Origin: a virus
Direction: 5' to 3' (one strand)
Virus record (IMG/VR): IMGVR_UViG_3300010356_002141
DNA length: 38,912 nucleotides
Positions 20,514 to 23,120 of this stretch are shown here, piece by piece. The first letter of the stretch is position 1; every line of letters starts with the position of its first letter. The position numbers and the translations under genes were made by a program. The notes below the pieces were generated by a model that saw only the letters and a list, made by a program, of their open reading frames with translations, made no database searches and was not told the DNA's origin.

Positions 20514-20547
20514 AGAGCTTAGGTTTTACGGCTTAGGCTCTTTTTTT
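20514..20547 (+). terminator. Plus-strand intrinsic-terminator-like hairpin (10-bp stem with two G-U pairs, then 7 T) inside a minus-strand transcription unit
   Basis: Reads agagcttagg-ttttacgg-cttaggctct followed by ttttttt. Confidence 0.4.
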
Positions 20548-21226: not shown

Positions 21227-21553
21227 TTATATTTGAGATTTAATTGTTTTAGTTTTTATATGTAATTCTAAAAGTTCAAACAGCTTTAATTTATTAATCT
21301 CAAATAAATAACAAGAAGAATTTTGAGGTTTTGATTTTATAATCAAGTCTGTTTTTAACATTTTAGTTAGAGAAGGATATACCACTTGTTTTACTAAAGA
21401 AGATGCTTGCACAATACTCTCAGCTGGCACTGGTTTATCAAACATACTAAGTGCTTTTAATATCTTTTTTGGATTCTTAGTCAATAGAGGGTAGTTATCT
21501 ATTGCTTCAAACAAATTTTCCTTATTATCAAAATCAGTCATTTTTCTTGTCAA
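21227..21553 (-). CDS. Winged-helix DNA-binding protein, repressor candidate
   Basis: 108 aa. The segment ILKALSMFDKPVPAESIVQASSLVKQVVYPSLTKMLKTDLIIKS fits a wHTH layout. The gene is transcribed divergently from the rightward early genes. Confidence 0.45.
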   Translation of the reverse strand: MTRKMTDFDNKENLFEAIDNYPLLTKNPKKILKALSMFDKPVPAESIVQASSLVKQVVYPSLTKMLKTDLIIKSKPQNSSCYLFEINKLKLFELLELHIKTKTIKSQI

Positions 21554-21570
21554 CTTTTAATTAGTATTAA

Positions 21571-21598
21571 TATATAATCTTTTTTATAAAAATTTCAA
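21571..21598 (-). promoter_or_regulatory. Leftward promoter candidate, TTGAAA-16 nt-TATATA
   Basis: Read on the minus strand of the 155-bp divergent intergenic region. Confidence 0.4.
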
Positions 21599-21617
21599 GG
21601 AAAATAAAAAATAATCG

Positions 21618-21644
21618 TTGACATGAATAAAATTAGTGTATAAT
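21618..21644 (+). promoter_or_regulatory. Rightward early promoter candidate, TTGACA-15 nt-TATAAT
   Basis: Both hexamers are perfect but the spacer is a short 15 nt. An inverted repeat taactt/aagtta lies in the leader. Confidence 0.5.
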
Positions 21645-21708
21645 TTTATTACATGAGGTAACTTGAAACCCTAAAAGTTATCATTATTTCAATCAAAATT
21701 AAGGTATC

Positions 21709-21954
21709 ATGGCTCTACTTAATACACATGCTACAGTAAAAAAATTTATGCAACATGGCTTTTCTGAAGAACAAGCCGAGGTTGTAGTAGATGCCATAAA
21801 TGACCAAAGCAATCATCTAGTTACTAAACAAGATTTAGCAATTGCCGTTTCTGAATTAAAATCAGACATAGCTGAGTTAAAAACTAATATAAAATGGATT
21901 ATGGCTATTGGTCTATTAATTGTAGGTATTTTGCTAAAAAATACCTTTATTTAA
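21709..21954 (+). CDS. DUF1640-like coiled-coil protein with a C-terminal TM segment
   Basis: GFSEEQAEVVVDAI......LVTKQDL......LKSDIAELK followed by a TM segment is the typical DUF1640 layout. Confidence 0.6.
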   Translation: MALLNTHATVKKFMQHGFSEEQAEVVVDAINDQSNHLVTKQDLAIAVSELKSDIAELKTNIKWIMAIGLLIVGILLKNTFI

Positions 21955-21959
21955 GTATT

Positions 21960-21985
21960 GCGTAGTAAAAACGTTTATGCTACGC
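21960..21985 (+). terminator. Terminator-like hairpin T1 after the first early gene
   Basis: Reads gcgtagta / tgctacgc (8 bp including one G-U pair) followed by tgttgttt. Confidence 0.4.
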
Positions 21986-22057
21986 TGTTGTTTAACAAAG
22001 TTTTGGATATCTGCAAATTAGATTGGTTTGCATTATTATCTGTAAAATTATCCGCTG

Positions 22058-22070
22058 GTTCTTGCGAGAT
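22058..22070 (+). promoter_or_regulatory. Motif variant GTTCTTGCGAGAT (core CTTGCGAG exact)
   Basis: String comparison; lies in the early noncoding region. Confidence 0.4.
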
Positions 22071-22161
22071 TAAAGGGCTCTTAGTGGGTTTGTGTTAGAG
22101 TTTACTTTCCATAATATAGAGTATGGACGTGGCTAGATGGTGTCTCTACTAACAACTTTTG

Positions 22162-22174
22162 AACCTTGCACGTT
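22162..22174 (+). promoter_or_regulatory. Motif variant AACCTTGCACGTT (first 9 nt exact)
   Basis: String comparison; lies about 30 nt upstream of hairpin T2. Confidence 0.45.
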
Positions 22175-22204
22175 TTGAAATTGTTAGCATAGACATAAAA
22201 AAAT

Positions 22205-22228
22205 AACTCCCTGAGAAATCAAGGAGTT
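22205..22228 (+). terminator. Weak terminator-like hairpin T2 (aactcc/ggagtt, 12-nt loop, T-rich tail)
   Basis: Read directly from the sequence. Confidence 0.3.
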
Positions 22229-22312
22229 TATTTATAAAATTTTATTCTTTTAATGTCGGGCAGACTGAGATTGAATAAAAACTAAAAAACACAACACCCA
22301 CAAAAACCCTTT

Positions 22313-22325
22313 AATCTTGCAGACA
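22313..22325 (+). promoter_or_regulatory. Motif variant AATCTTGCAGACA
   Basis: String comparison; lies immediately upstream of hairpin T3. Confidence 0.35.
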
Positions 22326-22330
22326 TCATA

Positions 22331-22352
22331 AAAAAGGAGTAACTCCTTTTTT
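22331..22352 (+). terminator. Strong intrinsic terminator T3 (aaaaaggag-taa-ctccttttt)
   Basis: Perfect stem followed by a T run; an A run upstream makes it potentially bidirectional. Confidence 0.65.
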
Positions 22353-22382
22353 GCATCAATGAGGCGCCTTACTTCGGCGAAG

Positions 22383-22395
22383 AACCTTGCGAGTA
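22383..22395 (+). promoter_or_regulatory. Exact copy of motif AACCTTGCGAGTA
   Basis: Exact string match, 30 nt after T3. It is followed by a deletion-like echo, AACCTTAGTAA, at 22400-22410. Confidence 0.6.
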
Positions 22396-22433
22396 ATTGA
22401 AACCTTAGTAAGACACAAAACTAGGGAACAGAT

Positions 22434-22446
22434 AATCTTGCAATTA
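22434..22446 (+). promoter_or_regulatory. Motif variant AATCTTGCAATTA
   Basis: String comparison; abuts an ATG that opens only a 9-codon ORF. Confidence 0.35.
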
Positions 22447-22526
22447 TGTTTCCTAAGATCATCACTGATACTTAGGACATTACCATTCTTTTTTGCAGCT
22501 GTCAAGACAGTAATTGCAAAAAAATT

Positions 22527-23120
22527 ATGTTGTTCAGTAAAAATATTTTTTCAAAGATCTATTCTTTATTAACAGTTGACGGGGAAAGGTTATTTTACCT
22601 TGCCTTATCTTCTGAAGAAACAGAAGAGGACGGATTTTTCTTTTTTCAATGTGAAGATTGGTCGGAAAAATACGGCATTCCTAAACCCACTATCAAGAGA
22701 TACCTAAAACATTTAGAAGATCAAAAGCTCATTATAAGAGAACTTAGGGGTTTATCTGAAGATAGCTATTATCCCGTCAAACGAGGCGGCCCTCATTCCT
22801 TTATTAAGGTACTTCCTCCAGAGACAGAAAAAGACATGACGTTCTTTGGGAAGTTACATCTCATTGAAACAAATGCTTATAACCATGGAACAGCAACTTT
22901 TAGGGATGTCTATAACATTCAAGACACTATCAGATTTGCATATGCTTTCTGCGAATTAGACGAAAACAACCTTAACTTCCAGGCATTAAAGAACATGGAA
23001 ACTGGCCAACAGGTAGTTTTTAAAGGGTGTGTTAAAAGGAACACAGAGGGCAGACCTTGGATAGTAGATATTTGGAACATCAGACCAGCAGGGGAGTTTT
23101 ATGCAGACAGAAGAAATTAG
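22527..23120 (+). CDS. Early protein with a wHTH-like segment (replication organiser or regulator candidate)
   Basis: 197 aa. WSEKYGIPKPTIKRYLKHLEDQKLIIREL looks like a helix-turn-helix. Confidence 0.4.
   Translation: MLFSKNIFSKIYSLLTVDGERLFYLALSSEETEEDGFFFFQCEDWSEKYGIPKPTIKRYLKHLEDQKLIIRELRGLSEDSYYPVKRGGPHSFIKVLPPETEKDMTFFGKLHLIETNAYNHGTATFRDVYNIQDTIRFAYAFCELDENNLNFQALKNMETGQQVVFKGCVKRNTEGRPWIVDIWNIRPAGEFYADRRN

Follow-up and report, generated by a model that had tools for sequence, protein, structure and literature searches.

We analyzed the region between positions 21955 and 22526 of IMG/VR record IMGVR_UViG_3300010356_002141, a viral DNA of 38,912 nucleotides that is called the window below and was considered at its full length. 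The region is a gap between the gene of a small CCDC90-like (DUF1640) membrane protein and the gene of a winged-helix protein, here called rep, whose similarity to phage replication initiators is weak. The window has 33% G+C. Its genes, which include those of a P22-type portal, a terminase, T7-type tail proteins, a lysozyme, RecT and a YqaJ exonuclease, fit a temperate podovirus-like phage, and a leftward regulator gene (21227-21553) opposes a rightward early promoter. The sole match to the window in the phage collection is MAnkyphage_25.80, a Megaira polyxenophila phage with a circular genome of 38.4 kb (83% identity). We conclude that the gap is probably where a temperate tailed phage of Megaira, lacking an integrase, attaches to the host chromosome, and that this attachment region sits within the untranslated leader of the phage's replication operon.

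Homologous gaps were gathered from IMG/VR, metagenomes, a Megaira genome and contigs carrying Rep homologues down to 52-55% identity; structures and elements were compared in 16 distinct homologues, cited by their L numbers where needed. In all homologues the gap measures ~470-640 nt, and the rep-like gene accompanies it in every case. The initial annotation, made from the sequence of the window, had described the gap as non-coding and as alternating copies of a motif with three terminator hairpins. Its borders, the hairpins (T1, T2 and T3) and the motif are all found where they had been placed: the exact 14-mer AACCTTGCGAGTAA stands at 22383, and variants stand at 22058, 22162, 22313 and 22434. 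The "echo" is at 22401-22411. The absence of coding was confirmed as well. Stop-free stretches, including the open reading frame (ORF) 22387..22572, vary in frame and position across the 16 homologues, all reading frames are interrupted by indels, and none of the stop-free stretches is kept. Conserved coding was rejected on either strand: a minus-strand ORF starting at the TTG of a -35 box reflects nucleotide conservation only, its frame being broken by indels in relatives, and a type I toxin-antitoxin reading was dropped on account of the same disruption. At the gathering threshold Rfam 15 gave no match in the window, and a permissive search (E<=10) of 21500-22700 gave a best match of 20.6 bits versus a gathering score of 43; a tRNA and tmRNA search found none. 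The view of the gap as a transcribed non-coding control region ahead of the replication genes holds. The long-range pairing and the dif-like site had been missed, and the nesting of an attachment site in a long RNA hairpin had not been foreseen.

A conserved plus-strand hairpin

The first hint of a long structure came from an inverted-repeat search, in which 22063-22096 pairs with 22288-22321. The minimum free energy (MFE) of the whole-gap fold is -182.3 kcal/mol (z=-10.5), and ten consecutive long-range helices, 85 bp in total, connect 22000-22103 to 22279-22508. The gap forms a single imperfect hairpin of ~490 nt on the plus strand, conserved in the 16 homologues, and its 3' arm ends within about 20 nt of the rep start. 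The motif variants, previously taken for separate copies of one site, are in fact complementary strands of these long-range helices: 22046-22063 pairs with 22380-22398, the region of the exact motif, 22064-22077 with 22307-22320, and the helix region 22028-22043 with 22428-22443. They can form such helices because CUUGCGAG is self-complementary once G·U pairs are allowed.

The consensus structure of the two-arm alignment contains 55 pairs. Pairing is kept in 97% of the alignment cells, compared with 38-46% after the partners are shifted against each other by 1-3 columns. Double-sided changes are few: they occur at three pairs, a number reached in 8 of 500 shuffles. Folding and covariation had been proposed as a check on the region; double covariation is limited because the arms are well conserved. 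The asymmetry between strands is the stronger evidence. The plus strand folds better than the minus strand in 16/16 homologues, by 7-35 kcal/mol, and its long-range pairs number 52-97 per homologue, far more than on the minus strand. RNAalifold gave -33.75 with 43 long-range pairs for the alignment of the arms versus -22.5 with 27 pairs for its reverse complement, and -66.9 versus -53.1 for the full-length alignment. The consensus pairs hold 101 G·U cells, in 15 columns, versus 3 A·C cells. These comparisons show that the pairing is selected on the plus strand; selection on the rightward single strand of a double-stranded DNA phage means that the rightward transcript is what folds. An alternative local hairpin displaying the 22383 motif in its loop is 91% paired, and was rejected since it shows no covariation.

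An optional hairpin module with a motif variant in its loop is missing in six homologues, single in most others and present as a tandem pair in L028 (1055-1170). Its stems are unrelated in sequence between homologues yet always paired, and the module behaves like a small mobile or fast-evolving cassette.

The dif-like site and the prophage junctions

The tip of the hairpin carries a 28-bp element of the 11-6-11 type, whose reverse complement (22131-22104) reads CACGTCCATAC TCTATA TTATGGAAAGT. The dif/Xer system has been reported for Rickettsiales (PMC2731167), and the published sites are ATATTACATAA TGTATA TTATGGAAAAT in Ehrlichia and TTGTTCTATAA TATGTA TTATGGAAAAT in R. prowazekii (PMC2731167). 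The XerD-like arm of the window matches the published arm TTATGGAAAAT at 10 of 11 positions; the phage sites overall match it at 10-11 positions, as in L008, where the site is TATGGACATAC TCTATA TTATGGAAAAT.

Chromosomal copies of the rep side were found in L007, L019 and L026, and all three stop matching the phage at one identical point of the gap, each beside a different host gene. The junction follows ybeY and corC in L007 (a Megaira chromosome), a solute symporter (SSF) gene in L019 (M. polyxenophila CP113867) and rpsA in L026, and the break point is the edge of the 28-bp element. The other prophage end was located via homologues of the CCDC90-like protein. In CP113867 this right end consists of the CCDC90-like gene, which is the final gene of the prophage, followed by T1, the intact 5' arm, attR and the 3' end of host rpsA; the rep-like gene opens the left end. 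The two sites are 37,407 bp apart, which is the phage size. attL, flanked by the host SSF gene and by the rep side of the phage, is TATATACATAA TCTATA TTGTGGTAAGC; attR, between the CCDC90/5'-arm side and host rpsA, is TAAATACATAA TCTATA TTATGGAAAGT. The attR site combines the phage-like left (XerC) arm with a consensus XerD-type right arm and is a near-canonical dif-like site, and attL combines a host left arm with the degenerate right arm of the phage. attL and attR are reciprocal phage/host hybrids. The chromosome-phage junctions of L007, L019, L026 and L035, of which those of L007 and L026 are independent of the CP113867 prophage, all map to 22104..22131, which is shown to be the point of crossover with a dif-like site of the host chromosome.

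The site is inverted between phage lineages (it reads CAAATACATAA TCTATA TTGTGGAAAGC in those with the inverted form), and the orientation of the prophage relative to rpsA inverts along with it. L026 has the site in the opposite orientation and its rep side adjoins rpsA, the outcome expected if site polarity sets the orientation of insertion. A folded single-stranded attP in the style of CTXphi was rejected, as the site lies in the apical region of the hairpin and is not built by the pairing of two half-sites.

No integrase or recombinase domain was detected in the ORFs scanned against Pfam, PHROGs, NCBIfam and PDB sequences. The annotation of MAnkyphage lists no integrase either, only a small "resolvase" that is missing from the window. 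In these respects the phage resembles the integrative mobile elements exploiting Xer (IMEX), i.e. the filamentous phages CTXphi, VGJphi and TLCphi and the dif-type double-jelly-roll vibriophages, which likewise have no integrase of their own. The likeness extends to a 28-bp dif-like 11-6-11 attP with one good and one degenerate arm, to its place beside a repressor or early-control module, and to the reciprocal hybrid junctions, one of which (attR) is near-canonical dif-like after integration (PMC12715192). By analogy with IMEX elements, host XerC and XerD would catalyse the recombination, a proposal that we regard as moderately supported. Several traits set the present phage apart: the searchable literature gives filamentous or non-tailed phages as IMEX, whereas this one is a podovirus-like tailed phage of ~39 kb; its attP is embedded in an RNA hairpin that is transcribed; we recognised no XafT-like factor; and Xer dependence is here something we infer.

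A second, more canonical dif-like site occurs at 29429-29456 of the window. It reads ATTTTCCATAA GCTTTA TTATGTATTCA on the plus strand and TGAATACATAA TAAAGC TTATGGAAAAT on the reverse complement, with a perfect Rickettsiales XerD-type arm. This site and its flanks are conserved 5' of the terminase gene in L019, L021 and L022, including a lineage without the site in the rep leader, and its central 6 bp differ from those of the gap site.

Terminators, promoters and a predicted countertranscript

T1 lies at the end of the first gene. Its stem is kept by compensatory or wobble changes (GC to UA once, GU three times) and is stabler on the plus than on the minus strand in 14 of the 16 homologues; the stem is modest and the U-rich tail is not a pure U-run. 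T1 is likely a partial rightward terminator. T2, also proposed as a rightward terminator, points the other way: it is the only terminator-like site called in the gap by the scan, and the call is on the minus strand. There it forms, in 16/16 homologues, a perfect hairpin of 10-12 bp (-10.2 to -12.5 kcal/mol) followed by a U-run, while on the plus strand the minus-strand G·U becomes a C·A mismatch and stability falls to between -0.7 and -9.3 kcal/mol. Two covarying versions of the hairpin exist, AACTCCCTG.../...CAAGGAGTT and GAGTTCCTAAAT.../...TTTAAGAACTC. With its minus-strand perfection and its U-run, T2 is well supported as an intrinsic terminator of leftward transcription, conserved in all homologues. 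T3 had been described as a strong terminator. It is a good hairpin in the window and in the close relative L013 only; in most relatives the hairpin is worth 0 to -3.5 kcal/mol and the U7 tract alone is kept. In the whole-gap fold T3 is placed as a side branch between two long-range helices. As a set, T1, T2 and T3 do not combine a stable G+C hairpin, a U-run and conservation in the way of rightward rho-independent terminators.

The only recognisable promoter upstream of rep is the early promoter at 21618..21646. A promoter scan found no sigma-70-type promoter for rep inside the gap, and transcription from the early promoter must therefore pass T1 and the U-tract of T3 to reach rep. On the other strand, TTGACA-17-TAATGT is the only conserved source of leftward transcription. 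Both hexamers and their spacing are conserved in the 16 homologues, even though the most distant of these have changed 5 of the 17 spacer positions. From this promoter to T2 a countertranscript of ~275 nt is predicted, from about 22470 to 22197, which would be the exact complement of the 3' arm (fold z=-3.6). A countertranscript that starts at this rep-adjacent promoter and is ended by T2 is moderately supported by the conservation of both signals, and it partially upholds another suggestion of the initial annotation, namely that the region produces short regulatory RNAs. Just 5' of rep, the half-sites of a palindrome co-vary in distant relatives (ATGTC...GACAT). The features of the region are collected in Table 1.

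Table 1. Positions of the genes, signals and structures in and around the gap
Feature	Position in window	Strand	Remarks
Early rightward promoter, TTGACA ... TATAAT/TAATTT	21618..21646	+	Read from sequence; kept in MAnkyphage; drives the CCDC90-like gene
CCDC90-like (DUF1640) small membrane protein gene	21709..21954	+	Pfam PF07798, E=1.8e-8
T1 hairpin	21960..21985	+	8 bp, -8.8 kcal/mol; end of first gene
U-rich tail of T1, TGTTGTTTAACAA	21986..21998	+	11/13 match to E. coli rrn boxA; nearly invariant in homologues
5' arm of long hairpin	22000..22103	+	Includes the motif variant at 22058
5'-arm MFE helices pairing with the 3' arm	22000-22017, 22020-22027, 22028-22032, 22035-22043, 22046-22055, 22057-22063, 22064-22077, 22084-22096, 22099-22103	+	From the fold
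attP, dif-like 11-6-11 site, 28 bp	22104..22131		Plus strand ACTTTCCATAA TATAGA GTATGGACGTG; tip of hairpin
Optional hairpin module	22140..22196		Motif variant AACCTTGCACG (22162) in loop; present, absent or doubled across homologues
T2, intrinsic leftward terminator	22197..22228 (hairpin 22228-22205, U-run 22204-22197)	-	Two covarying sequence versions
A/U-rich hairpin TTTTATTC...GAATAAAA	22240..22280		Invariant 8-bp outer stem (alignment columns 329-336 with 366-373), variable inner stem-loop
3' arm of long hairpin	22279..22508	+	Three side branches; includes motif copies at 22313, 22383 and 22434
T3, A6-GGAG-UAA-CUCC-U6 hairpin	22330..22352	+	-10.1 kcal/mol on plus strand, -7.8 on minus strand
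"Exact motif", AAGAACCTTGCGAGTAA	22380..22396	+	3' strand of helices with 22046-22063; invariant in all homologues
Predicted countertranscript promoter, TTGACA-17-TAATGT	22477..22505 (-35 22505-22500, -10 22482-22477)	-	Kept in 16/16 homologues
Palindrome CTGTCAAGACAG	22499..22510		17 nt 5' of rep start; candidate operator or RNA hairpin
rep-like winged-helix protein gene	22527..23120	+	PHROG replication-initiation families, E=1e-6

Integration and the control of rep: a model and its alternatives

That an attachment site lies within a conserved, strand-specific RNA hairpin, together with a leftward terminator, is well supported by the results above. The regulatory logic that would connect leader, countertranscript and integration is offered as a model only. 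In the circular genome the early promoter would read through T1 and across attP into rep; since rep has no detectable sigma-70-type promoter, it is probably reached in this way. After read-through the 5' arm would close onto the 3' arm. The countertranscript would start at the 22505-22477 promoter and stop at T2. Being complementary to the 3' arm, of which the 5' arm is the other partner and in effect a cis-encoded look-alike of the countertranscript, it would compete with the 5' arm for the rep leader and would limit rep expression, like plasmid countertranscripts. Integration would leave the promoter, T1 and the 5' arm on the right side of the prophage, and the left side would receive T2, the 3' arm and rep together with the countertranscript promoter. 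With the leader split, rep would be severed from its promoter and the leader would stay incomplete for as long as excision has not rebuilt the joint. In the prophage, T1 and T2 would point outwards, towards host rpsA and the symporter gene, and could shield the host genes.

Each part of this scheme has a counterpart in a known system. In lambda, the sib RNA structure takes its parts from both sides of attP, so that it can form only while the genome is not integrated, integration cutting it in two. The gap hairpin likewise spans attP and is split in the prophage; the lambda structure has no sequence relationship to it, lies downstream of int and triggers decay by RNase III, whereas the present one is ~490 nt long and upstream of rep. 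In Tn916, an outward promoter at one end reaches the genes at the other end only once excision has joined the ends. The geometry is the same here, the early promoter and rep occupying opposite ends of the prophage until excision joins them; Tn916 differs in being a conjugative transposon with its own integrase, and we know of no long RNA hairpin or countertranscript in it. The third counterpart is the rep leader of plasmids (R1 CopA/CopT, attenuation in pT181 and pIP501, Inc RNA of IncI/IncB), where a long structured leader faces a convergent antisense promoter near rep that has its own intrinsic terminator, as predicted here. In IncI/IncB, as in our model, long-range intramolecular pairing rivals the antisense RNA. 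Compared with these plasmids, the phage would make a longer antisense RNA (~275 nt), which would compete with a 5' arm of ~100 nt similar to the antisense RNA itself; attP interrupts the leader, and control of this kind is a prediction.

In its widest form the proposal is that a podovirus-like tailed phage lysogenises its host, an obligately intracellular symbiont of the Rickettsiales, by hijacking XerC/XerD-dif, as the first tailed IMEX, with attP at the tip of a ~490-nt hairpin; integration and excision would break and rebuild both a riboregulator and the promoter-gene link controlling the replication operon, and the RNA would report whether the genome is integrated or free. Taken as a whole this is a tentative idea, less likely than not to be right. 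If true, it would extend Xer-dependent integration to a tailed phage in a reduced endosymbiont genome, and the use of Xer would explain how an integrase-less phage family lysogenises Megaira. The attachment site in an RNA hairpin, the outward terminators and the countertranscript suggest that the replication genes may be expressed only from the excised circular genome, a regulatory idea that brings together principles each described on its own, in lambda sib, in Tn916 and in plasmid copy control. For annotation, the 28-bp element with its flanking sequence provides exact prophage borders in Megaira genomes.

Several observations weigh against the interpretation of the gap as attachment region and folded leader. 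The site of the window has a degenerate XerC-like arm, and its whole-site match to dif is unexceptional in a genome-wide scan of this A+T-rich sequence; it owes its status as attP to the junctions and to relatives whose sites match more closely. L005 and L006 have no site in the gap, the junction of L016 is elsewhere, and an empty attB downstream of rpsA was not found in two related genomes. Two proteins of 476 and 447 aa match no detectable family, and one of them may be a novel recombinase. As for the RNA, only three double compensatory pairs occur in the conserved arms, most of the support coming from conservation and one-sided wobble changes. When the variable inner helix was swapped between phages, cognate pairs gave -22.3 kcal/mol versus -19.5 for non-cognate ones; this difference is not decisive because the TAGCTGGTG/CACCGCTA core is common to most lineages. 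Finally, the countertranscript promoter matches the consensus at 9 of 12 positions and was missed by the promoter scan, and rep could have a promoter that was not recognised.

Some of these cases can be described further. In L016 (1746-1830; metagenomic, coverage 1.8x) GAATAAAAAC marks the join between a class-III aminotransferase gene and the rep leader. The join lies ~110 nt rightward of the expected dif-like position, in a lineage without that site, and may reflect integration at another point, a deletion or a chimeric assembly. In the related Rickettsiaceae L039 (4715-5000) and L042 (4703-4996), the spacer downstream of rpsA contains G+C-rich palindromic elements instead of a dif-like site, and gene order around rpsA is therefore not conserved. 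A scan of IMG/VR for further attR junctions gave only contigs already in the homologue set.

Four other explanations of the gap were weighed against that of an attachment region nested in the rep leader. The one that survives best is that the gap encodes free-standing regulatory RNAs with targets elsewhere, the countertranscript or the leader pairing in trans with AACCTTGCGAG in the 5' leaders of late operons and thereby timing late genes. The 14-mer AACCTTGCGAGTAA has three exact copies in the window, and 13 matches when up to 3 mismatches are allowed versus 3.8 expected, a count reached in 0 of 100 shuffles. Copies of AACCTTGCGAG are found at 2546(+), 17316(-), 17760(-), 29628(+), 31191(+) and 37879(+), at the start of capsid, lysis, terminase and other late operons. 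At 2546, 17316(-), 29628, 31191 and 37879, exact or near-exact 14-mers lie in gene orientation 11-24 nt 3' of -10 boxes; three copies end 5-6 nt ahead of a start codon; the core CCTTGCG is kept in MAnkyphage at the capsid, lysis and terminase positions; and the predicted countertranscript would hold the exact complement of the motif. A protein recognising the motif would account for the copies equally well, however, and the gap motif is invariant, which leaves no room for covariation with its targets. Pairing in trans is moreover compatible with the nested attachment region and does not exclude it. As the explanation of the gap we hold it to be rather unlikely.

Another possibility is that the arms are accessory DNA sequences of the recombination site, bound by proteins of host or phage that control synapsis, and that the RNA fold is incidental. 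Accessory arms of ~180 bp are present at cer and psi, and lambda attP has arm sites; extended flanks are a feature of known Xer plasmid sites and attP sites. Here too the arms flank the recombination site, and they are highly conserved with little double covariation. Double-stranded protein-binding sites are not expected, on the other hand, to show the wobble asymmetry (G·U in 15 columns versus A·C in 3) or the greater stability of the plus strand in 16/16 homologues. The site inverts between lineages while the arms stay put, L005 and L006 keep the arms without the site, and the 3' arm extends to about 20 nt from the rep start. Accessory DNA is for these reasons an unlikely account of the arms.

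The initial annotation itself favoured processive antitermination, a switch like lambda N/nut or HK022 put that would modify RNA polymerase and carry it through T1, T2 and T3 into the replication genes. The position fits, after the first rightward early gene and before the replication genes, with at least one hairpin to read through, and no promoter belonging to rep itself was recognised, so that T1 and the T3 U-tract need passing. The invariant 13-mer right after T1 matches E. coli rrn boxA (11/13) and is followed by a long-range stem; leaders of rrn operons have such an order, boxA then a long-range stem. A switch across three terminators is not supported, given that T2 faces the opposite direction, the T3 hairpin is missing in most relatives, the motif copies are helix strands and not repeated recognition sites, and no Rfam family matches. 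Nor is the boxA-like element enriched: with up to 2 mismatches, 7 matches occur in this A+T-rich window versus 3.3 expected, and we treat the 13-mer as a lead only. Hairpin T1 stands before it, not after, and no boxB follows it as in lambda nut. There are no put-like paired stems near the promoter, the structure here beginning at least about 350 nt downstream and past a coding gene. No N-like or Q-like protein was identified among the proteins scanned, and no family of N-like arginine-rich RNA-binding proteins among the early proteins scanned, where small ORFs without family remain. We therefore find antitermination improbable.

A replication origin beside the initiator gene, iteron-type as the initial annotation had considered or structured with the hairpins as unwinding or priming elements, is very improbable: the gap is A+T-rich, adjoins a gene weakly similar to replication initiators and has a palindrome just 5' of rep, but 21955-22526 contains no family of direct repeats (an iteron array being at least 3 direct repeats of ~17-22 bp, regularly spaced, beside rep), its repeated elements are complementary or inverted and form RNA pairs in which the wobble is specific to one strand, integration splits the gap, and lambda-type initiators usually have their origin within or downstream of the initiator gene.

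Some further observations concern the surroundings of the gap and its relatives. The divergent promoters that separate the regulator gene from the CCDC90-like gene occupy 21524-21648; this stretch contains a 28-nt inverted repeat, 21541-21568 with 21603-21630, a candidate operator pair. At 20514-20541, a strong hairpin of 12 bp followed by a T-run is terminator-like. The CP113867.1 prophage (L019 1-20603 and L035; about 1,412,899-1,450,306) shows an apparent internal inversion between inverted copies of a 433-aa reverse-transcriptase gene (RVT_1), which leaves phage segments on either side of two host genes; next to it are a group II intron reverse transcriptase and a transposase. An NCBI record labelled "MAG TPA: Bacteroidales bacterium" carries the Rep protein of the window, whose relatives are all Megaira phages or prophages; it is probably a complete Megaira phage genome put into the wrong metagenome-assembled genome. 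The 447-aa ORF (29799-31142), for which Pfam, PHROGs, NCBIfam and PDB sequences gave no match, lies in a segment of ~4 kb (27055-31261) without MAnkyphage homology, at the position where MAnkyphage has its "resolvase". The window also encodes an ankyrin-repeat protein (26070-26375), a weak Tad2-like (anti-Thoeris) domain (27990-28406) and, between the terminase and tail genes, a patatin-like phospholipase (32676-33716).

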